Of a stretch of DNA of 64,000 nucleotides, positions 4,081 through 46,442 are shown piece by piece. Positions within the stretch are counted from its first letter, which is position 1, and every line of letters starts with the position of its first letter. The notes below the pieces were generated by a model. It was not told the origin of the DNA and did not search any database. It saw nothing but the letters and a program-made list of their open reading frames with translations. The DNA comes from a virus (Duplodnaviria > Caudoviricetes), in the IMG/VR virus record IMGVR_UViG_3300011008_002750, positions 32,001-96,000 of that record, one strand, 5' to 3'. Made by a program: the position numbers and the translations under genes.

Positions 4081-5523
4081 TTTTTAATATTTTATATATA
4101 ATTATAATGTACTTTTATTTAAGTTTTAAAATTTAAATTATTTCAAAAATTTCTGGAATAAATATAAAAAGAAAATATTTTTTAAGAGTTGAGAGGCTTA
4201 AAAACTATTTTAGAATTATAGTTTATAAATTATAAAGCATTTTAATGTTTTATTATTCAGCCTCTCAATTTAAGAATAATAATCATTTTAATGCTTTTAT
4301 TTTATTTATATGAAATTAGTTGAACAACATATAATTAAATCTAATAATGTCCTTTATAAAGAACTTGATAATCTTTGTTTTCTTTCAAAGAATTTATATA
4401 ATCAAGCTCTCTATAGAATTCGTCAATAGTTTTTTAAAGATAAAACATTCAAAAATTATTATGATTTGAATAGAGAACTTCATGATGAAAACTAGATTGA
4501 TTATAGATCACTACCAGCAAACACTTCTCAAGAAACATTAAAATTAGTCAACTAGAATTATAGTTCATTTTTCAAAAGTTTATAGAAACAAATTAACGGA
4601 GTTAAAATTCCAGGTTATCTAGACAAAACTAAAGGAAGACAGATAGTTGTTTATAATTATTCAACAATATATGGCAATAAAGAATCTGGAATTATAAAAC
4701 TTCCTAAATCAAATATACAATTTAGAACAAAATAGAAGAGCAACTATTAAAGAACTATTAAAAGACAACAAAAGATATATGTCTATTGATTTAGGAATAG
4801 ATAACCTGGCCAGCTGTTCTTCAAATGTTTCTAAATCATTTATAATCAATGGAAAACCTGTTAAATCTATTAACTAGTTTTATAATAAAAAGAAAGCAAG
4901 TCTTCAATCTGAATTAAAAATTAAAAATAAGAAAAAATTAAGTAAGCAACTATAGAATTTAACTTTAAAAAGAAACAATAAAATTAAAGATTATTTTCAT
5001 AAAGCTTCCAGATATATTGTTAATCAATTAGTTAACCAATCTATCAATACTTTAATTATAGGAAAGAATGATGGATGGAAACAAGAAACAAATATCGGAA
5101 ATGTCAATAATCAAAATTTTGTTAATATTCCTCATCAAATGTTTATAAACTAGTTGAAATATAAATGCTAGTTAGAAGGAATAAATGTTATTGAACAAGA
5201 AGAAAGCTACACTAGCAAAGTTAGTTTCTTTGATAATGATTTTATTCCAACATATCAAGTTAATGATAAACTATTTAAATCTTCAGGAAAAAGAATCAAA
5301 AGAGGTTTATATAAAACTACTAAAGGATAGTTAATAAATGCTGATATAAATGGTTCATTAAACATAATGAGGAAACATTTAAATGAAGTTTGTGATGAGA
5401 TTATATCTCCAGCAAATAGAGGGTTAGTGATGAACCCTGTTAAAATTTAGTTTTAATAAATAAAAACAAAAAGTGTAAATAATTTATACACTATTTACAC
5501 TTTTATATTGTTTTTAATATCAT
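4081..5523 (+). mobile_element. IS200/IS605-family (IS1341-like, tnpB-only) element, copy 1; left end apparently lost, left boundary approximate
   Basis: Highly similar to 12740..14235; right-end hairpin AAAAGTGTAAATA/TATTTACACTTTT; homology ends at TCAT (5520-5523); no tnpA. Confidence 0.8.
4310..5456 (+). pseudogene. tnpB: TnpB RNA-guided nuclease with frameshifting deletion near 4740
   Basis: With TAG=Q: MKLVEQH..SKNLYNQA, SIDLG, IIGKNDGWKQ, QEESYTSK, NADINGSLNI; N-part stops at TAA 4748, C-part is in the +1 frame. Confidence 0.85.
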
Positions 5524-5540
5524 GAGAATATCATATATTT
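5400..5540 (+). ncRNA. probable omegaRNA (tnpB 3' end, right end and flanking guide); limits approximate
   Basis: AGGGTT/AACCCT hairpin and right-end hairpin conserved in both copies; position follows known TnpB architecture. Confidence 0.5.
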
Positions 5541-7229
5541 AATTCTGATTGGATCTGGATTTGGATTATAAACCACTAAGCTGGTTGGCAAATTCAAATC
5601 ATGAGATTGCGGATCATCATCTTTTCCAATAATCATATATGCTTCACCAACTTTATTCCATAAACCGTTTTCATGAACCCATTGCAAATATCTGAACAAA
5701 CCTATAATATTCTTTTTTCTAGAATAATAATTTTGTCCCATATATGTTAAATCATCATCAACATCTTTGTCTGGACGATATGGATCCATATAATCGGTAT
5801 CAATATCATTAACCATATGTTGAATTGGATTTTCTGGTTGTCTTCCATCATCCCAACCATCTGTTAATGAGCTAACAGAATTTTCCAAACCGAGAGAACC
5901 AAATTCCGGATGCAAATGTCTAAAATCTTCTTCCTCTTTAACTAAAGTTGCATTAGACAAAACTCCATAAATTTTTGGAAGGAATTGATGTTCTTTAGTA
6001 GGCCTATATAATTTAACTTTTGATTTGATATGATTGATCCAAAGAGAGGCATATTCATAATCATCAGTTTTGGTTGGCCAATCTGGAATAAGAACAATTC
6101 CTCTAAATGCACCATTTGGATATTTCATTAATGGAATTCTTTTATGTCTGTCTTCTCTTAACCAATAAAAATCTCTATAATATGCATTTAATTCATTTAT
6201 GCGAGTTTTAATATCATTAATTATATTATATAATGCTTCTAAAGCAGCATCATCTAAATACAAATTAATTATATCATCATCATAAACTGTATTCTTAGCA
6301 GCAATATTATATTTAACTAACCACTCTTCATCCCCTGTTCGCTCATATTCTTTAAAATAAATAATCATTTTTTCAAATGAATCAAGATCTTTAACAGCAA
6401 CAATATAATTATGTAATAACCAAGTATATAAATCACAATCAACTTCATAAGTATCTGGATCATATTGACCTTCAACAATATTATTGATTCCATCATTATC
6501 ATCATCTTCATTAGTTTGATCTAATTGCATCGGATGATATTTTTCAATTAAATCATACATAAATTGCTTTAATTGCTTAATGCCTTTCTTAAATGGAGAA
6601 TCTGGAAAATCTTCAGATTGGAATTTAACTGTTACTTTCAAGTTATTGATATAATAGAAATAACCTTCTTTTTGAGATAAGAAAACTAAATATTCATAAG
6701 TATGACCATCTATTTCATCAACTTCATCTTGAACAGATGCAGAAACTAAAATATTGTATTTTTTAAATGCATCATTAATTTCTTTAACAAATGAAGTTTG
6801 TCCATCTGCCGCAGTATGAATATGAAAACGCTTTGGTGCAAAATTATTGTAAATCACATCAAAATCGCAATCAATATATTTTTCATATCCTTCTGTATCT
6901 TTTAATTGTTTCGGAATAACATAATAATATGATGCAGCTGACAACCCAAATTCTTGTCCTTGGAGAACGGTTGCTGAATGAGGCTGGAGAATTCTGGTTT
7001 CTGTAGTATATTGAGTAATTCCACTTGCATGAATCTGTGATAAATCTATATTAGATAATGAATTGCCATTAGAATCTGTTATAGTTCCAGCAGAACCACC
7101 AGATACACTGCCTATAATATCAAATGATGTATCATTTTCATCAATAGCTGAATTACATGTATATCCAGAATTGACTACATTGTTTGATGTTGAATATAAT
7201 TTATAAAATAAATTTTTATTTGATGCCAT
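5520..7229 (-). CDS. hypothetical (likely virion) protein
   Basis: 569-aa ORF; ATAAATA upstream; its TGA stop is supplied by the IS right end. Confidence 0.8.
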   Translation of the reverse strand: MASNKNLFYKLYSTSNNVVNSGYTCNSAIDENDTSFDIIGSVSGGSAGTITDSNGNSLSNIDLSQIHASGITQYTTETRILQPHSATVLQGQEFGLSAASYYYVIPKQLKDTEGYEKYIDCDFDVIYNNFAPKRFHIHTAADGQTSFVKEINDAFKKYNILVSASVQDEVDEIDGHTYEYLVFLSQKEGYFYYINNLKVTVKFQSEDFPDSPFKKGIKQLKQFMYDLIEKYHPMQLDQTNEDDDNDGINNIVEGQYDPDTYEVDCDLYTWLLHNYIVAVKDLDSFEKMIIYFKEYERTGDEEWLVKYNIAAKNTVYDDDIINLYLDDAALEALYNIINDIKTRINELNAYYRDFYWLREDRHKRIPLMKYPNGAFRGIVLIPDWPTKTDDYEYASLWINHIKSKVKLYRPTKEHQFLPKIYGVLSNATLVKEEEDFRHLHPEFGSLGLENSVSSLTDGWDDGRQPENPIQHMVNDIDTDYMDPYRPDKDVDDDLTYMGQNYYSRKKNIIGLFRYLQWVHENGLWNKVGEAYMIIGKDDDPQSHDLNLPTSLVVYNPNPDPIRIKYMIFS

Positions 7230-7271: not shown

Positions 7272-10200
7272 TTAGCCATTACGAATTTCTCCAAATATTT
7301 TTTCAGGACTATCGCTAAATTGAACAGTAAGATCTTTATGAGATTCTGACCAAGCAGTAAGAGCAGCAGAAACTGCATTTCCAATAATAGCTGCAAGTTC
7401 TTCTCTATCTTGTTTCTTTTGTTCCTCTTCGCGCTTCTATTCTTCTTCACGTTTATTTTTAGTAAGTGCGTCTTTAACAATATTTCCCATTTTTTCAGCA
7501 CCTTCTACAGCAGCATTAACGCCTTTAGAAATAATATTTCCAGATGTAACAGATTTCATCTAATCATATAAACGTGTTAATCTCATTGATTCTTTCATTG
7601 CACTATTCAATTGATTTACTCCAGCTGCCATATCTTTAAAATTAGATGCAACTGATTGAATTGCTTTAGTTCTTTGTTCTTCTTTAGCAATTAATTCAGC
7701 ATCTAATTGTTTCATTGCAGCAGCTAAATCAACAATTTGTTTTGGCGTGGCTGATAAAAATGGTTTAATATGATTAATACCATCTGCTGTATTTTTCATT
7801 GCCTCTTTAAATACGGCAGAATTTGATTTTGCTGTCCTAAAATTAGTAACATTTAAATATTTTACTATTTCATTTAACCCGTTTGTTAAATTTAATGTAT
7901 TTCCAACAAATTCCGGTAAAAACATTTCCTTTTTAATAATATTTAAATATTTAACACCATCACAAAAATCTTCTAATGTATCCTTAAATTTATCGGCATT
8001 CCAATCTGCTTCTGCTATTGCTTTAGAATGACCGAGGAAATTAAGAATAATATTTAAACCGTTAATTAAATTATTTACATTATTGTCTTTATTAAATACA
8101 ATTTTTTGTAATATATCGATATCTCTAATACCATCAATAAAATCTACCATTGTATCCTTAAATTTATCGGCATTCCAATCTGCTTCTGCTATTGCTTTAG
8201 AATGACCGAGGAAATTAATAATATCAGTTAAAATTGATACGACCGTACTAGCAGCACCCTTTAATTTTGTTTCGTCTATATCTATAACTTTATCTCCGAC
8301 TTGTATTTTTCCAGCAGCTATTTGAATGATATGGCCAAATGCTGCACCAATACCCTATAAAACGGATCCAAGTTCTTCTCCAACAATTGCTAGAATTCCA
8401 GTAGATATAATACCTAATCCTTTTAATCCAGTTCCAAGTTCAGTTAAAAATGTTGAAAATGCACTAGATAAATTAATTGCAGCTTTTTTAAAATCATTTT
8501 CAGGATCTAATTTACGATAACTAATTGGATTTCCATCTTTATCCCATTTATCTGGAACATTCAAAGATGCCATTTTTTGAATAACATCAACAAAATCAGA
8601 TAATGCTCTAATTACATTACCAATACCTCCACTTCTCTTTTTATTTCTTGGAAATAATGTCTTTAAAATTTTCTTAGTACCATCTAAATTTGTTAACGTG
8701 TCAAGGCCTGATGTTAAATTATTAATAAATGTTGTAAATGCAGTAGTAAGGTTGGTAGCAGCGGCAACAAACTCGGTTTCTTTCATTTTACGATAAATAG
8801 GTTTTCCATTTTCATCGTAATGATCTAAAATTTCCATTTTTGCCATTTTTTGAATAACATCAACAAACATACTTAATGCTTCCATTACTGGTTTTAATGC
8901 TTTACCTATGCGTTTAACGTTTTTAGCTTGTTCCTTATTAAATTTCATTAAATTTACAATAATGGTTTTAAGACACCCAAGCATGCTTTTATTTCCTTCA
9001 CCTGGATCAACTAGTTTTTTAACAGCATCATTAATTGCAGTTTGATCTAATTGATTAACTTTATTAAGCAATTCTACAAATAATAACATTGCTCCAGATA
9101 TACTAGCAATTGCAATTGCAATAGATTCTATAGCAGCGAATCCATACCAAAATATTAATGCCTATGGACCTGATAAAAATGCGCCTAATGCAAATATTTC
9201 GGCTACTACACCCATAATCATTGCACCCATCATTACTGTTCCTTTTATTATGCCTTTTAAAGAAATTCCGTCCATCTTCTTTAAATAATCTGCAAATAAA
9301 TTCATTGCAAAAGATAATCCAATAATAGCTAAAACTATTGCACCAACACCTAAAATACCTTTAATTGCATTCTTCTAAAAACTATCACGACTAAGAACCC
9401 ATATCATAGCTATTGCAAATGCAACAATAGTGGCTAACATAATTATACCTTGGATCATATCAGTCCATTTAGTTTTTTTGGCAGTTCTTGTAACTATAAC
9501 AAGAGCCAATGTCATTCCTAAAATTAATAATACAACTTTTCCTAATGATTGTAATCCATCTAAAGATTCTTTTTCAAATTTTTTGCTTCCAAGAACTAAT
9601 ATTGTTAAAATTGCAAATGTCATTACTGCGGTTAACATCATTATTCCTTGCACCATATCAGTCCATTTAGTTTTTTTAGCAACATATATTAACAATGCAA
9701 GAGATAATGTTAATCCTCCAATTAATAATATAATATCTTTTGTTCCTTTTAATCCTTCATTTGCTTCACGTTTAAACCACTTAGAACCGAGCAGTTTTAT
9801 AATTCCAAGTGCAAATATAACAACGCCTAATAATAATCCTGCTCCCCCAGCAAGATCTTTTAAATCATTTGTTTTCCATAATATCACTAATGCAATTAAA
9901 CATAATGATAAGGTTCCAACTAATGTTGCTACAGATAATGCAACTTTAGCTGCTGCTTTTGCTTTTTCCACTCCATTTCTTCCGCCGGCTAATTTATCTA
10001 TTAATTCTTTAAAGAATCCACCAATAGCTGCTCCGATTTTTGGACCAAGAAATACGCCCATCATCCATAATTGCATAATCTATTTTTCTTTGATTTGCAA
10101 TAAAGCTGCCATCATCAATCCAAAATTAACTAAGCGTTCTTTAAATGTTTTGCTTTGAACCTATCTATTAGGAGGAACCTAATTAATAATATCTACCATT

Positions 10201-12179: not shown

Positions 12180-12743
12180 ATGGAAAACAAAAATGATTTA
12201 GATGCTTTAATTATGGAGCATGGCCAGGAATTTAATAATAATATTAATAAACTTATTAAAAGTGAAGAGCTTTTAAAAGATAAGCTTGTTTATGAAGACA
12301 CTAATCAAGTAATGCCTGGACAATTCAAAATGCCAACTTCTGACGATGTTGCACTTGATAAAGAAGATGCCCGAGACAATTTAATTAAACACGCAGCAAT
12401 GTTTAAACTTCAAAAAGAAAATGAAGAATATAGAAAAATGTCAGATGATGAAAAAGTAAAAGATTATATTTGTCAAGCTCAATATTATAGAGAAACAAAT
12501 GATTTTTACCATAAAAACGGTTATGAAATGTCTGGTAAACAAAAACGTTATATTAAACGTGCAATTGAAACTGCATGGAAGAAAGGAAAACTTAAAGTAA
12601 CACCTGAACAACGTGAAGATATTTTATTTGAATTAAGCAAAGCATCGCGTCAAACAGTTCCAGCACAAGCACCTACTCAAGGAACAACAGAAACAAATAT
12701 TTCAGAAAATATTAAAGATTTAAATTCTTTGATTTTCAGATGA
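12180..12743 (+). CDS. hypothetical protein
   Basis: 187-aa ORF; TGA stop supplied by the IS right end. Confidence 0.75.
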   Translation: MENKNDLDALIMEHGQEFNNNINKLIKSEELLKDKLVYEDTNQVMPGQFKMPTSDDVALDKEDARDNLIKHAAMFKLQKENEEYRKMSDDEKVKDYICQAQYYRETNDFYHKNGYEMSGKQKRYIKRAIETAWKKGKLKVTPEQREDILFELSKASRQTVPAQAPTQGTTETNISENIKDLNSLIFR

Positions 12744-14235
12744 TATTAAAAACTATATTATAAAAGTGTAAATAGTGTATAAATTATTTACACTTTTTAA
12801 TTTTGTTTTTATTTGTTAAAACTAAATTTTAACCGGGTTCATCACTAACCCTCTATTTGCTGGACTTATTAAGTCATCACAAACTTCATTTAAGTGTTTC
12901 CTCATTATATTTAATGAACCATTTATATCTGCATTAATTAATAAACCATTTGAAGTTTTATATAAACCCCTTTTAATTCTTTTTCCTGAAGATTTAAATA
13001 ATTCATCATTTTGCCCATAAACTGGAATAAAATCATTGTCAAAAAAGCTTACTTTACTTGTATAGCTTTCTTCTTGTTCAATAACATTTATTCCTTCTAA
13101 CTAGCATTTATATTTCAGCTAGTTTATAAACATCTAATGAGGAATCTATGTAAAATTTTGATTATTTTGTTTACCTAAATTTGTCTCTTGTTTCCATCCA
13201 TCATTCTTGCCTATAATTAAGGTATTGATAGATTGGTTAACTAATTGATTGACAATATATCTGGAAGCTTTATGAAAATAATCTTTGATTTTGTTGTTTC
13301 TTTTTAAAGTTAAATTTTGGATCTATTTGCTAGATTTCTTTTTATTTTTTAATTCTAGTTCTGATTGAAGTTTAGACTTCTTTTTATTATAGTATTGGTT
13401 TATTGATTTAACTGGTTTTCCATTGATTATAAATGATTTAGAAACATTAGAACTGCATGTAGCCAAGTTATCTATTCCTAAATCAATAGACATATATCTT
13501 TTGTTGTCTTTTAATAGTTCTTTAATAGTTGCTTCATAAATCACTTCTAGAATTATATAATTATTATTTAGGAAGTTTTATAATTCCAGATTCTTTATTG
13601 CCATATATTGTTGAATAATTATAAACAACTATCTATCTTCCTTTAGTTTTGTCTAAATAACCAGGAATTTTAACTCCTTTAATTTGTTTCTATAAACTTT
13701 TGAAAAATGAACTATAATTCTAGTTAACAAGCATTAGCGTTTCTTGAGAAGTGTTTGCCGGAAGTGCTCTATAATCAATCTAGTTTTCATCATGAAGTTC
13801 TCTATTCAAATCATAATAATTTTTGAATGTTTTATCTTTAAAAAACTATTGGCGAATTCTATAGAGAGCTTGATTATATAAATTCTTTGAAAGAAAACAA
13901 AGATTATCAAGTTCTTTATAGAACTAATGATTAGACCTTATAATATGTTGTTCAACTAACTTCATAAAATAATAAAAGCATTAAAATGATTATTATACTT
14001 AAAGTGGTATCCTGTATAATAAACCATTAAAATGCTTTATAAATTATAACTATATTTCTAAAATAGTTTTTAAGGATACCACCTCTTAAAAATTATTTTC
14101 TTTTTATATTTATTTCAGAAATTTTTAGAAAAAATTCAAATTCTTTTATAAATTATAAATTTATAATTTAAACAAATATTAAAACAACTATATAATATTT
14201 GTTATAGAATTTACAGATTTTATAACTTTTAATTT
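12740..14235 (-). mobile_element. IS200/IS605-family tnpB-only element, copy 2 (both ends present)
   Basis: Excision restores ...TTC AGA TAA followed by a terminator; TTAT precedes the left end; left-end hairpin 14201-14230; right end TCAT. Confidence 0.85.
12816..13965 (-). pseudogene. tnpB: TnpB with frameshifting deletion near 13566
   Basis: N-part ends KLPK-TAA (13564); RuvC-containing C-part is in another frame; same motifs as copy 1. Confidence 0.85.
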
Positions 14236-16598: not shown

Positions 16599-19500
16599 AT
16601 GATTCCTAAAATTTGGTTAGATAAATTAGAAGAACAAAAATCTAAAACATATGATGAAGCATATGCAGAATTTAATACTTGGAAACAAACTGAACCAAAT
16701 AAAGGCTCTAATGCTTAGACCATAAATAGTGTAGATGGCACATAGTTTTGGAAAGATTGGAAAGAAGTTGATGAATAGAAAAAAGCAGAAAAGGGCTGGG
16801 GCCCTAACACATATTATTCTAATTTTGTTGGTCCTGATGCAAAAAAACCAGTTTTTTCAGTGCTTCCATAGACAAAAACAATTGTTGAATATGTTAAAAC
16901 TACATTAAAAAATGGCTGGAAAAATTTAGATGGAGGGGCAGAAGTAATGGGTGCAATTACAGAAATAAGTAATATTGGACTTATCAGCTATCAAAATCTT
17001 AAAAATTTAGCATCTAACAAATATAATAATACCGCATTAGCAAAAATCAAAAATGATAAAAAACGTGAATAGTTTCAAACATTAATTAATAATACTAATG
17101 ATAATTTAAAATTATGTGCAGAATTATTTAAAGAAGTCGATATTTATTGGGCTGGTTGGGGCTCATATCTTGATACATGGCTCGAAGACGTGAAATCTTA
17201 TTAGACTATGTGGGAAAAAGTTTTAGAAGAAATAAAAAATGGAACAACTCAAGAACAAGAACCGCCAGTAAATACTACGCCAGATTTAAGTGCTATTATG
17301 AATATTGGAGATGAGAGTGCAGTTAAAAATGTTTTTGCATAGTCTAATTCAGCCGACAATACATTCCAACAAATAGAAAAACCAAATAATTAGCAGGATG
17401 TTTCGGTGAATACAACACATACTAGAATTTATGAATATCTCCCAACAACTATTCAATTAGATGAAATGTCTATGCCGGTAATGGATAATATTGATTCAGA
17501 TGGAGTTATAGATCCATCAACAGGATAGCATTTAGATTCAAGTTCAAATGTAAATGATGACCCATATCAAACTCAAGGAAATTTATCTCCAGACAAATTA
17601 AATACTATTGGTTTTGTTTATCCTTTGTTAAGAATTAATGATCACTATTATGGAAATGGAGATATTAAATATTTTTCATTAGAAACTATTGGATTTATTC
17701 CTACTATTGAAGTCACGCTTGAATGTGGTTTTAATGATATATTGAAAGCAAATCAAATTAAAGATGGGGATTTATGTTCAGTGTTTATTAACCAAGCACA
17801 TGGAAATCTTAAATCATACCGTGCAGATTTTCAAATAACTAATGTAAGAGTTCCACAATTGAATCAAGGAGTAATGACTGATACAATCAAAGTAAAACTT
17901 ATTGGAGAACTTTATATTCCAGCGATATATGATTCCACACAGACATTTTCATTTGCTGGCTCATCTAGAGATGCATTAATAGATGTTGCATAGAAATTAG
18001 GTTTAGGCTTTTTCTTTAGCGATCCAGAAAATACACAAGATGCCCAAATGTGGTATAGTATGGCAGATGGAGAACAGAAAAATACAAATACTTCCCCAAC
18101 TATTGAATATATTAAAAATACGGCAAAGCATTCATGGAAAAACTTTGAATCATTTTATGATTGTTGGATAGATCCACGTTATGCTATATCATTTATTAAT
18201 ATTGCTTAGATGCTTGGTGGGTCTGGCCTTGATGAAGAAATAGATTTAGCTATATTTAATTCAGCAATGACTGCTGGTAAAATTTCAGATGGAAGGAATT
18301 CTGAAAGCTCCTCTAAAGAAAAGGCTGCAACGGCAACTCCGCAATTTAAATTATTATCTAATATTGGAACTGGAACTGCTGGATTAACTTCATTTTATGT
18401 AACTAAATATGCAGAAAAAAATGATAATTCAATTACTAATAAGTTGGGATTGTCTAATGCAAATTATTATAGTATTAAAAACACCGGAATATAGAAAGTG
18501 GAAGATAATACAATAGAAATGAATTTATCTATTCCAGTAAATGCAGATAAATTAAAACATGGTTTTTATATTATGGCAGGGCCTGGACGAAATTTAACAT
18601 ACACACAAGCTGAAAACGGATCCTTTGTTGATTAGCATAAATCAGTATAGGGCGGACAAATAGCAGAAACTCAATCAGATGGGGATGAAGAAGAAATAAT
18701 AGAAACTGGAAGTAATATGTTTGCGTCTGGCAATACTAATAAATTCTATGAAACTGCAGATGGACATAATACTTTATGCAATGCATGGCTAAAAAAGAAA
18801 ACCATTCAGGTAACATTAAATGGATGCAATATGCAAATTATGCGTGGAGAAAAAATTCCAATGCTATTAAAAGACAATTTTAATCCAATGCTAAATTATG
18901 CTTAGGCTAATACTGAAACTGATTTGATTTATTAGAAAATAATGGCTTCTGCATCAGGTTGGTTTATTATTCAAAATATTAGATGGATATATGATAGGGA
19001 CAATGTTCAAAAAGGAACCCAATGGAGAACTGAATTATCATTAACTAGACGAGAATGGCCAATTCCAGGATATGTTAAAAATTAGGGTTAGCAACAAGAT
19101 GTAGAAAAAACAGCTGAAGAATTATATATTCAAAATAATATAGCATCGGGTTCTATTAAAGAGGCAGTATAGGATCAAGAAACATAGCAAACTAATGATA
19201 ATAATAATGCAAAACAAGAAACAATGACAACCAATGGATTGAACTCATATATGATAACTATATATAATGATATTGTTTCTGCATGTTTAGCAGGCGGTAA
19301 AAAAGTTAAATTGGTTTCCGGACGTAGATGGTTTGCTGATGAGAATGGAAATAAAGTCGAGGCTGCTACAGTTTAGGATGGAAATCTATGGAAATTTGTC
19401 AATGCTAATGGTGATATTGTTTGGTATAGTTCTAAAACATCTCCACATGCAACGGGCGACGCTATAGATATTATTAATGATCAAGGAACTACATTTAACG

Positions 19501-29533: not shown

Positions 29534-29635
29534 AATTAATTTATTATTTCAATATATTTATTTTTATAAATAAAAACTAAGTTTCTGTAAAAATATAAAA
29601 TAAATAATAAAAGAAATTTATATATAACATAAATT

Positions 29636-38596: not shown

Positions 38597-38824
38597 ATGG
38601 ACGAAACTACAAGTGCACACCCACACAAATTTGGTATTAATGATTTATCAGCTAACGAACAAGTATATGTTAAAGGCCATTTATTGGAATTAATTGGAAA
38701 AGCAATGCAAGCGGTATCAGAAGCATGTCATTATGCAAAAGATGTAAATCTTTTAGATTCACAAGATTATTTGAATTTTGAAGATACATTAAATTAGATA
38801 TCTATTATGGATCCTAATAAATAA
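38597..38824 (+). CDS. hypothetical protein
   Basis: Extends past TAG 38795 to TAA 38822. Confidence 0.6.
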
Positions 38825-38850
38825 TTAAATAAAAAGACTATATTAGCATT

Positions 38851-40704
38851 ATGGCTAAAAAATATATATTAAGATCATTTAAACCCGGTGAGTAGAATCA
38901 TAATCATGTTAATCCATTGATTAATCTTTCATCATTCGGTTTGCAAAGTAACCAAAGTATTATGAAAAATGCTTTGGCTATTAGTGCTTCATAGACTCGT
39001 AATGGAATGATGGATGATCAACTCAATCCTAATTATTATGATGCAACCGGAACAAATAGATTTACAAAATATAAAGATTTAACAAAGAATCAATCATCTA
39101 ATTATGCGTATTATGACATGACATATGCAACTCGTTGTCAATATTGCAGACAACTTGCACGGGATGTTGAAATTAACTTTATATTAGAAACTATTTGTAA
39201 TGAGGCAATTGTAAATGATGAAAACGGACAATTTGCTCACCTCAACCTTGACAAACTTAAATTATATCTCAATAAAGGATACGACAATAAGAAAACAAAT
39301 ACCAACGCAGACAAATTAATCAATGATTGCAAAATTGCATTCAATAGAGTTTATTCTGCATTTGGTTGGGAAAACAATAGTGGTGCTTGGAACTATTTCA
39401 AAAAATTCTTAGTTGACGGATTCCTTGCATTTGAAATTGTTTTTGATGACAAGCATAAAAATATTATTGGTATTTTGAATCTTGATCCAACTACTCTTCA
39501 ACCAGATATTCAAGTGACAGAAGACGGGCAAGAATTGTTTATTTGGTACCAATTCAAAGGCGCAGCAAATCAAAGAAAAATTCCAAATTCAAATATAATT
39601 TATATTTCATGGGGTGACTTAGGAGATACTAGAAATACTAATATTTCATATGTTGAAGGTTTGACTCGCCCATTTAATATGTTGAGACAATTAGAAAACT
39701 CTCACTTGATTTGGAATATTCAAAATGCTCAAAACCGTGTAAAAATCACTGTTCCTGTAGGTGAACTTTCAGATGCACGTATCAAACAACGTGTCAGTGA
39801 AATTTATGCAGACTATGCAGAAGAAGTAACGATGGACGATATGTCTGGACAAATGCTTGTCAATGGTGAACCTAAATTCAATTTCCAAAAAACTTATGTA
39901 TTTGAGGATCGTGGAGGACAAGCAATTCAAATGGATACTGTTAAAGGTGATGGATACAATATGAATACTACAGAAGAACTTCAATATTTCTGGCGTAAAT
40001 TTATATTGGAATCCCAAGTTCCTGCAAACCGTTTCAATTTGAATATTTCACAAGCACCTAATAATGCTTTAGTTGGTGATGCTAATGTGACTCGTGAAGA
40101 ATACGCATTCTCTCGTTTTATTGGACGTGTTCAAAATGCATTCAAAGAAATTCTTCTCAAACCATTATTGGTTCAAATTTGTTTCATGCATCCGGAATTT
40201 TCATATACTGATATTCTTAAACAAGGTTTAGGTATTGAATATAATGAAGAAAATGTATTTGCATTAGCTAAAAAGCGTGCAGCTATTACTGAAGGTGCTA
40301 ATACAGTTTCTACATTACTTGGACTACAAGGCCCTGATGGAAAACCATATTTTGCACTTGATTTCTTAGTTAAAGAATATTTAGGATTGTCAGATCAAGA
40401 TATTGAAACTAACCAAAAGTATAAGGAAGCTGAAATTCTTAAACAAATAGAGTTGGCTAAGTTAATGAAGAAACAACAAGCTGACGCAGCTGCTAATGCT
40501 CCACAACAACCAGGAGGTGATATGGGTGGCGGAATGGACATGGGTGGAGGCGGAATGAACTTCGGTACCAATGATGTTATGAGCGGTGGAGAATTCGGTG
40601 GCCCTGATATGGGTGGCGGAATGGACATGGGAGGCAGTGAAGCACCTGCTCCAGAAGCCCCGGCTCCAGAAGCACCAGCACCTGAAGGTGGTGAAACAAT
40701 GTAA
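38851..40704 (+). CDS. gp20: portal vertex protein gp20
   Basis: EINFILETICNEAIV, FLVDG, NMLRQLENS.LIW, VP.NR, TREEYAFSRFI; two TAGs in the first 50 codons; Gly/Met/Pro tail. Confidence 0.9.
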
Positions 40705-44059: not shown

Positions 44060-44200
44060 ATTTGTCAGGGGTTTATTTTTATATAAAATATCCTATATAG
44101 ATACTTATAGGCCCTGACCCCTACTTTCTCTATATAGGATATTTATAAATTTATTAATAAACTATTAATTATAATAATGTCAGGGTTAATAGTTTATTCT
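44060..44200 (-). ncRNA. structured 5' leader of endonuclease A
   Basis: 13-bp and 16-bp perfect stems, GAAA/AAGUA internal loop, 8-nt loop complementary to two CCCUGAC copies. Confidence 0.65.
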
Positions 44201-44221
44201 TTTTATTATTTATTTCAAAAA

Positions 44222-44959: not shown

Positions 44960-45009
44960 TATAAAAAACTAATATTTTTATATTTATTTTTGAAATAAAT
45001 ATAATGTAA

Positions 45010-45164
45010 TAAATTATTATTTTCTCCTACAATTAAAACTTAATTTGTTTTAATTTATATAATAATTAAAAATATTAAAGTTCTTTTTTATAGAAAGCAG
45101 GGTAGGAGCTGTAAGTATATAATTAAGAACTTTATTTTATTATAAAAATAAACTCCTACAAATT
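45010..45164 (+). ncRNA. structured 5' leader of endonuclease B
   Basis: Same architecture as leader A with key CUCCUAC/GUAGGAG. Confidence 0.65.
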
Positions 45165-46442
45165 ATGAATGAAAAAGAGTATATAGAAGATTATAATTTA
45201 TTAAACGATGAATATATATTGAGTGTATTTATTAATAATGGTAAATTCCTTATTAGACGATATGATTCATTTTTAAATAAGCATGATGCTATTAAAAAAT
45301 ATATTGAAAATAGATATTCAGATTCTCAATCTATATAGGAAACATTATATAGAATGATTAATAATATTGAAATCCGCCCAATATGTAAAAGTTGTGGTAA
45401 ACCGGTTAGCTTTAATGGTTATAAAGGGGGTTTCTCTATATTTTGTTGTTCAAAATGTGCATCAAATGATCCAGAAGTAAAGCAAAAAGTAATGCAAACG
45501 TCTTTAATAAAATATAATACATTATATCCTAGCTAGAATAAAGAAGTTAAACAAAAATAGTCAAAAACAATAAATAGTAAATCAATTGAATAGAAAAAGT
45601 AGGCAAGTAATAAAGTAAAAAAGACTAAATTATTAAAATATGGTGATGAAAATTATAATAATCATGAAAAAACATCTTAGACCAAATTATTAAAATATGG
45701 TAATGAAAATTATAATAATTCAGAAAAATAGAAATAGACATGCATTGCTAACAATGGAGGTATTGGATTTTAGTCAGAAAAAATAAAAGAAAAATATATT
45801 AAAACTTGTTAGTAGTTATATGGATGTGACGATGGAAGTAAATCTCAAATAGCTATTAATAAATTTAAAACTACATGGAAATCAAAAACAACAGAAGAAG
45901 TTGCAAATATAGTTAAAAAACAACAAAATACATGTTTACTATTATATAATGAAACAAGCTATACTAAAACACTAGAATATCGTAAATTTGTTTCTAATAT
46001 GGTATCATCACAAGAATATTAGGAACATCAATTATATATTAAAAAATTAAGAGGAACAGTTAATTCATCAAAAGTAGAATAGCAATTTAAAGAATATCTA
46101 GAACAAAATTATCCAAATGATTTTGAATATCAATATAGATCAGAATTATATCCATTTAATTGTGATTTTTACATAAAGTCATTAGATTTATATATTGAAA
46201 TAAATGGTTCTTGGACACATGGTGGTCATCCATTTGATGAAAATAATTAGGAAGATATAGATAAATTAAATTTATGGAAATCTAAAAATACATAGTATTT
46301 CAATAATGCTATTAATACATGGACTATTAGAGATGTCAAAAAACGAAATATGTCAAAAGAAAATAATTTAAATTATTTAGAAATATTTACAAAATATGCA
46401 GATGAAGCAATAAAACAATTTAATGAATATATAAAACATTAA
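45165..46442 (+). CDS. modular Vsr-like endonuclease B (intact, 425 aa)
   Basis: CKSC..CCSKC, KTKLLKYG repeats; C-terminal domain nearly identical to A; open with TAG=Q. Confidence 0.8.

Follow-up and report, generated by a model that had tools for sequence, protein, structure and literature searches.

Two copies of a tnpB gene carried by a large phage are each preceded by a leader in which a 10-nt segment is complementary to a second segment located farther downstream, and it is in these segments that the otherwise similar leaders differ. The locus thereby raises the question of what kind of element the leader is, whether the complementarity has been maintained by selection, and what a helix of changing sequence might do for the gene that follows it.

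The phage, its tnpB cassettes and their promoter

The DNA analysed here (the window) is a stretch of 64,000 nucleotides corresponding to positions 32001-96000 of a 120,854-bp virus record. The record is ~27% G+C, and many of its ORFs stay open only when TAG counts as a sense codon. Since its predicted genes encode portal, tail-tube and head-tail adaptor proteins as well as a clamp-loader and an exonuclease, the record is, to judge from its gene content, that of a large, TAG-recoded tailed phage that brings replication genes of its own. We note that structural genes and tnpB are among the users of TAG, that some window genes have zero TAG codons, and that a search of the window for tRNA genes with ARAGORN found none.

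A cassette of ~1.38 kb comprising a promoter-like word, a leader, a broken tnpB gene and a 3' end hairpin is repeated in the window; its limits, set by alignment of the copies and their flanks, are 4145-5523 on the plus strand (copy 1) and 12740-14126 on the minus strand (copy 2). The tnpB pseudogene of copy 1 (4310-5456, plus strand) is open in its first frame from 4310 to 4750 and resumes with the RuvC part at 4779-5456 in the +1 frame, carries 11 in-frame TAG codons, and has suffered an out-of-frame deletion of 62 nt relative to intact relatives of 402 amino acids. That of copy 2 (12816-13965, minus strand, ATG at 13965) consists of the ORF pieces 13965-13564 and 13544-12816 and has lost 59 nt, also out of frame, at a place that differs from the deletion of copy 1 and overlaps it; the two deletions are independent and fall in the same short region. 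Within the coding region, the site of the deletion in copy 1 is bracketed by a 12-bp inverted repeat free of mismatches (4701-4712 / 4786-4797), which may have promoted the deletion unless its position is due to chance. Pfam models PF01385 and PF07282 match both the window fragment and an intact 402-aa relative (RuvC and TNB domains), and the intact relatives L069, L070 and L101 encode 402-aa TnpB proteins with OrfB_IS605 and TNB domains. The first-pass annotation had spoken of two tnpB copies and needs correction on one point: both window ORFs are broken pseudogenes, which also need TAG as a sense codon.

Four tnpB leaders are present in the record, two of them outside the window, and a fifth, more distant leader precedes another gene. 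The third genome copy of tnpB carries a 1-nt deletion. Because the ORF is dead and the leader intact in three of the four genome copies, no link between the leader and a functional gene is apparent.

The conserved 3' end of the cassette (5466-5523 on the plus strand in copy 1) contains a 12-bp hairpin found in both copies (5471-5502; 12761-12792) directly downstream of the tnpB stop codon, with ~20 nt separating it from the cassette's right end. This 3' end is where the right end of the element and a putative omegaRNA scaffold would be expected, and the hairpin itself may be a terminator or part of such a scaffold. No tnpA (serine recombinase) gene accompanies any tnpB copy of the record. Two relatives sharing 36-41% identity (L073 and L080) have a Resolvase-domain tnpA abutting tnpB in the IS607 arrangement, and both are devoid of the leader, for which reason we rejected the possibility that the leader is the left end of an IS607-type transposon.

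Each leader is headed by a promoter-like word that reads GGAATAAATA in copy 1 (4155-4164; feature 4155-4165 on the plus strand, core at 4157-4164) and GAAATAAATA in copy 2 (14116-14107; feature 14106-14116 on the minus strand). Its core, AATAAATA, is the most enriched upstream 8-mer in the record, where it precedes 37 of 107 genes against an expectation of 3, and it is likely to be the phage's general (late-type) promoter core. The core ATAAATA matches the late promoter of T4-type phages, and we take the word to be late on general grounds and on account of its presence before structural genes. Other examples in the window lie at 38814-38821, 29597-29606 and 44992-45001. The word usually ends 19-33 nt before the ATG (29 nt in the case of the portal gene); in the tnpB cassettes this distance grows to ~145 nt, and in the leaders of homing-endonuclease genes described below it is 98-138 nt. 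This difference in spacing suggests that the structured RNA is an insert specific to these genes, placed between an ordinary phage promoter and a selfish gene. The earlier placing of a promoter upstream of the leader is strengthened by the genome-wide enrichment of the word and by its occurrence before the portal gene. A sigma-70-type promoter within the leader (TTGAGA-16-TAGAAT in copy 1) was considered and discarded: 20 such matches occur in the region against 16.2 expected, and the final T of the copy 1 match is missing in the other copies.

Conservation of the key helix

In copy 1, the 5' arm of the variable helix, referred to here as the key, occupies positions 4189-4198 on the plus strand, ~25 nt downstream of the promoter-like word. 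The 3' arm, or anti-key (4259-4268, plus strand), is its exact reverse complement and forms the 5'-most 10 nt of the 15-nt loop that caps a long hairpin. The corresponding arms of copy 2 lie on the minus strand at 14073-14082 (key, read 14082-14073) and 14004-14013 (anti-key, read 14013-14004). The arms of the two copies differ at five of ten positions, all of them compensated, and the leaders are nearly identical around them; the arms, their positions in the window, the location of the 3' arm in a hairpin loop and the conserved flanks are thus all as first described.

Pattern and protein-guided scans yielded further leaders from viral contigs (L008/L069, L010/L070 and L027/L072) and metagenome contigs (L089, L098, L101, L104, L130 and L131), giving a set of 12 distinct tnpB-type leaders, four from the record and eight from viral or metagenome contigs. 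Neither a second pattern search of viral contigs nor a scan that covered one genome for each prokaryote species added a new leader, and a covariance model run against three phage records retrieved the known copies and an endonuclease leader and nothing else. A weak match of the model at window positions 38821-38922 is not a member of the family, nor are some 40 human-gut metagenome matches, which represent an unrelated hairpin. The leader family is small, its members are closely related, and all of them come from contigs of uncultured phages.

Seven different keys occur among the 12 leaders: TTGAGAGGCT in copy 1, L070 and L130; TTGGAAGGCT in the third genome copy and L104; GTGGTATCCT in copy 2 and L069; GTGGAATCCT in L089; TCGGAAAGTT in L072; TTGAGCGACT in L101; and CTGGAACGCT in L098. 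In all leaders save one the loop of the long hairpin carries the complement of the key. The 8-nt core of the helix is perfectly Watson-Crick in 11 of 11 non-chimeric leaders, whose non-Watson-Crick cells all fall at a single edge pair (columns 42/110); one G-U pair was seen, in L072. The sole leader with a broken core (record 16772-16945, minus strand, outside the window) combines the 5' arm of the L101 key with the 3' arm of the L072 key, and its 3' flank matches L072. Since each of these arms is intact elsewhere, the broken leader is, as its composition indicates, a recombinant with a crossover between the arms rather than a product of drift. The ORF behind it looks otherwise full-length, although a run of masked N near its 5' end prevents a firm call.

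Changes on both sides of the helix were found at 7 of 13 pairs, with 96.8% of cells paired across the 12 distinct leaders; the covariation score was reached by none of 500 shuffles, and sliding the partner by 1-3 columns reduced pairing to 36-50%. By our own count on the alignment, linking the keys to one another requires no fewer than 11 compensated double changes. The aligned leaders thus uphold the covariation first read from two copies, and the pairing is maintained in the additional copies with the recombinant as its only breach. On this comparative evidence, the pairing has been conserved through many compensated changes and is under selection.

The rate at which the arms change is out of keeping with that of their surroundings. 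Averaged over pairs of sequences, the arms differ by 0.39, compared with 0.038 for the remainder of the type-1 leader and 0.25 for third codon positions in the adjoining ORF. The arms thus differ 10 times more than the remaining leader, itself some six times more conserved than third codon positions, and they need a minimum of 1.5 changes per column versus 0.26 elsewhere. As estimated from these alignments, then, the leader is far more conserved than silent sites and the key helix changes at least as fast as they do, even though each step of its change requires two mutations. What does not change is the strength of the helix: every key contains 4-6 G/C per 10 nt in a 27% GC genome, and cognate arm-loop duplexes have predicted energies of -16.6 to -20.1 kcal/mol, compared with a mean of -8.6 for non-cognate duplexes and -5.6 for the chimera. 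Given this steady G/C content and the uniform energy of the cognate duplexes, helix strength is held constant while the sequence of the key varies.

The genes behind the leader are not all of one kind. A near-identical leader precedes a different ORF of 452 amino acids in L098, L104 and L130. This ORF, which starts MQTLKI and is found at L098:473-1828 as well as in L104, L130 and L137 with the same leader type, had no sequence match in Pfam, PHROG or PDB; it shows a weak local likeness to TnpB RuvC-II and D/E-containing motifs resembling those of a RuvC nuclease, and could on these grounds encode a very divergent TnpB-like protein. A homologous leader, recognised by our own covariance model with E=0.008, precedes a homing-endonuclease gene (phrog_3339); it has the hairpin foot and a spacer motif in common with the tnpB leaders, and its key is of 12-14 bp. 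Leaders of phrog_3339 genes are located at window positions 44060-44215 (minus strand) and 44992-45167 (plus strand) and at record positions 7714-7897 (plus strand). In all three, an upstream key is followed by its complement, which sits in a hairpin loop, and then by a further, identical copy of the key located 3-5 nt upstream of the ATG; no two of the three leaders share a key. The orientation of the leader relative to the downstream gene is fixed before three unrelated gene families and, as far as the sequences indicate, the key pairing is confined to leaders of nuclease genes.

The parallel drawn in the first-pass annotation between the tnpB leaders and those of the endonucleases is accordingly one of homology for at least one of the latter; it does not extend to the third copy of the key, which the tnpB type lacks. 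A candidate third copy beside the tnpB start was rejected, as cognate duplexes between loop and start region (-3.2) were no better than non-cognate ones (-3.05). The third copy being restricted to the endonuclease leaders, the two designs may work in non-identical ways.

Leader folds and their possible action

The leader is ~150 nt in length and its structure lies 12-155 nt upstream of the tnpB ATG. The most prominent fold is the long interrupted hairpin (4234-4297 on the plus strand in copy 1, ~13975-14038 on the minus strand in copy 2), whose foot in copy 1 is ~70 nt downstream of the promoter-like word and which is followed by a U-rich run up to the ATG; its predicted energy in copy 1 is -18.3 kcal/mol (z -4.4). 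It ends at 4297, 12 nt before the ATG at 4310, in agreement with the earlier description. Its top pair changes from U-A to A-U in three leaders, and the middle or the whole of its stem differs in L104/L130 and in L137, yet still pairs. Upstream of it, a small and nearly invariant spacer hairpin of 7 bp (4202-4224, plus strand) is present in the minimum free energy (MFE) fold, with 95% of its cells paired and no covariation. A weak hairpin at the 5' side, P0, is possible at 4179-4204 (plus strand), with an 8-bp A/U stem (4179-4186 / 4197-4204) and a 10-nt loop that holds the eight variable bases of the key (4189-4196); the variable alignment columns 34-41 coincide with this loop. The P0 fold (-6.5 kcal/mol, z -1.3) is not significant alone, and its stem, which is formed by the invariant flanks, has no covariation support.

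A short upstream ORF of 21-22 codons (window 4245-4313 and 14030-13962, the latter on the minus strand) starts in the long hairpin, crosses the anti-key and, in 5 of the 12 leaders, ends as ATGA on the tnpB start codon. It was rejected as a conserved feature since it is truncated, fused or absent outside these five.

The helix had been called a pseudoknot, which formally it is. From the geometry of pseudoknots, however, it is doubtful that both helices of a compact form could be fully formed, since the linkers available to bridge a helix of 10-13 bp measure 0 and 2-5 nt. In nested folding, the state containing the key helix coincides with the MFE or comes close to it (-27 to -32 kcal/mol). For those type-1 leaders in which both constraints map cleanly, it is more stable by 3.5-10 kcal/mol than the alternative in which both hairpins form and their loops stay free. 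An 8-bp intramolecular kiss between the two loops, or a bistable switch between two hairpins and one long helix, fits the modelled energies better than a compact pseudoknot.

Our main reading, to which we assign a probability of about one half, is that the element is a portable module of promoter and 5' leader that acts as RNA in cis before selfish nuclease genes. A group of large TAG-recoded phages would place this module of ~165 nt in front of such genes. Transcripts would start just after the AATAAATA word and present the 8-nt key within the weak 5' hairpin's loop or close to it, while its exact complement would sit in the 15-nt loop of the long hairpin ending 12 nt before the AUG. The two loops would pair as an intramolecular kissing contact, which could grow into a 13-bp helix if the weak 5' hairpin and the upper part of the long hairpin were given up, and the pairing would thereby select between two folds of the leader. 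The fold chosen would set access to the A/U-rich start region, which has no Shine-Dalgarno sequence, or, alternatively, determine passage or processing of the transcript at the hairpin and U-run. Complementarity and helix strength alone would matter in such a device, leaving the sequence of the key free to change.

We infer that the element acts as RNA and not as DNA, that it works in cis and that it influences expression; the late control of selfish nucleases hinted at in the first-pass annotation is of the same standing. Some observations run counter to the cis-acting RNA reading. The absence of G-U pairs from the core in seven keys is as fitting for complementarity at the level of DNA, or for templated complementarity, as it is for a strong short helix, and it is on the opposite strand that the one mismatch of L069 would become a G-U pair. 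The route from the key helix to expression is not evident in the tnpB leaders as these lack a key copy at the start codon. The weakness and invariance of P0 and the dead ORFs behind intact leaders weigh on the same side. Finally, the long hairpin has a U-rich run behind it; it is A/U-rich, with ~3 G-C pairs in its stem, internal loops and a 15-nt loop, and was not flagged by a consensus terminator scan.

A more specific idea, which we consider doubtful, is that the 8-nt loops are programmable private labels, matched as key and lock, that serve self-recognition in cis or between copies and are kept diverse by selection against cross-talk where one genome harbours many such cassettes. If this were true, the leader would be a cassette-specific riboregulator common to two TnpB-like families and to homing endonucleases. 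It is unlikely, in turn, that the loops work as address labels in trans, such that a leader would pair, by way of its key or anti-key loop, with transcripts of cassettes bearing the same key and mediate cassette-specific copy sensing or mutual inhibition, perhaps once released as a ~125-nt small RNA whose end falls at the hairpin and U-run; selection would then favour a distinct key for each cassette within one genome. Fast RNA-RNA recognition usually relies on exposed, G/C-balanced and strictly Watson-Crick 8-mers in hairpin loops, the arms outpace third codon positions in their evolution, the long hairpin is followed by a U-rich run, and the seven key-bearing leaders of the record all have different keys. 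For a key pool of such size, however, seven differing keys are not significant. Moreover, the same key is found with different genes in different contigs, and no second exact site for any key exists elsewhere in the 120.9-kb record, where one-mismatch matches look like chance. A search for a link between the key and the right-end flank (the presumed guide) found none.

We regard as quite improbable that the complementarity is a property of the DNA, either because template switching (quasi-palindrome correction) keeps an inverted repeat perfect during replication in loop sequence that is otherwise unconstrained, or because the arms serve a DNA-binding or recombination protein as paired half-sites or as a cruciform. 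The perfect Watson-Crick core would suit such an origin, as would several changes that are transversions without a wobble intermediate, the similar appearance of the arms on both strands and the L069 mismatch, which is no better on the sense strand. Against this reading, the G/C content of the keys stays at ~50% in a 27% GC genome, and the loop sequence is therefore not unconstrained; the chimera remains uncorrected; and the endonuclease leaders carry a third, direct copy of the key beside the ATG, of a kind that hairpin-templated correction cannot make. In addition, one and the same key serves different proteins as well as dead genes and so does not co-vary with a binding protein, and autonomous IS607-type relatives do without the leader.

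That the leader is an undescribed riboswitch or ribozyme, with the variable helix as an ordinary stem and ultra-conserved unpaired bases as the active core, seems very unlikely: a conserved leader with one freely varying helix is the usual signature of such RNAs and the association with mobile genes would be in keeping, but no Rfam family matched at E up to 10, the conserved parts are nearly pure A/U with the promoter region included, and in a family so tiny and closely related conservation may reflect recent spread.

Relation to known RNA elements and significance

The nearest known counterparts are leader hairpins that restrict T4-family homing endonucleases to late expression. RNA structures in the leaders of I-TevI, I-TevII, I-TevIII, segB and Aeh1 mobE keep expression late; the hairpin contains the ribosome-binding site, and late transcripts, which start from an internal late promoter, cannot fold it (PMC2988022). 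As in T4, the element described here is a structured RNA found just upstream of selfish nuclease genes of a large lytic phage, together with a late-type promoter, and is presumed to restrict expression. The attached genes are of the selfish-nuclease kind, tnpB being OrfB_IS605/TNB and the others phrog_3339, in a tailed phage. Unlike the T4 hairpin, the long hairpin contains neither a ribosome-binding site nor the start codon, ending as it does at 4297, and no Shine-Dalgarno sequence is present; the promoter-like word lies upstream of its foot, with no exact copy within it; and the leader has an extra long-range helix whose sequence is variable among copies.

The operator of T4 gene 32, a compact 5' pseudoknot of ~28 nt and conserved sequence that is bound by gp32 and followed by an A/U-rich unstructured tract, offers a second comparison (PMC535899). 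Both are pseudoknot-type folds located upstream of an unstructured A/U-rich run to the AUG, in phages with T4-type replication genes. The crossing helix described here differs in spanning ~70 nt, in being hypervariable and in having no known protein partner. Short complementary sequences in hairpin loops are also shared with the antisense controls of IS10 (RNA-OUT/RNA-IN), R1 (CopA/CopT) and ColE1 (RNA I/RNA II), where complementarity between hairpin loops sets specificity and changes create new specificities. In these systems a single mutation alters both partners, because they are read from the two strands of one piece of DNA; in the leader, by contrast, the partners are separate segments of one strand and two mutations are needed, and no antisense transcript is indicated. 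The leader is a member of neither the gene 32 operator type nor the kissing-loop antisense controls.

The omegaRNA (reRNA) of TnpB, which includes the RAGATH-18-derived RNAs of IS607 TnpB, is likewise a structured non-coding RNA attached to tnpB (PMC11061315). The omegaRNA is found at the 3' end and takes its guide from flanking DNA, whereas the leader is at the 5' end and both pairing partners are internal to it. We rejected an assignment of the leader to omegaRNA or RAGATH-18 reRNA on the basis of its 5' position, the lack of an Rfam match and its presence before a guide-less homing-endonuclease gene; the initial view that it is separate from omegaRNA was correct, the leader also preceding genes that use no guide RNA. 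The Rfam search proposed at the outset returned no matching family for the leader: none reached the gathering score in the window and nothing relevant appeared at E up to 10 in 4100-5600. A group I intron or IStron was dismissed for want of an Rfam intron match and because the leader is only ~150 nt long; moreover, ~45 conserved nucleotides precede the 5' arm, and the upstream sequence is therefore not an exon. The leader looks like a new element among the structured leaders that control selfish nucleases of phages, its role in control being presumed.

Selfish phage nucleases must be expressed without harming their carrier, a problem that T4 has solved with leader hairpins. The leaders described here point to a different, modular solution in which an almost invariant leader with one helix free to vary is attached to TnpB-type as well as protein-only homing nucleases. 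The reach of this finding is limited for now by the size of the family and its restriction to uncultured phage contigs. Should the helix gate expression, the module would represent a compact design whose specificity can be rewritten by eight bases, and it would be of relevance to RNA regulation and to the control of TnpB genes before the omegaRNA stage. The leaders would then also provide a clean natural test set for the study of compensatory evolution.
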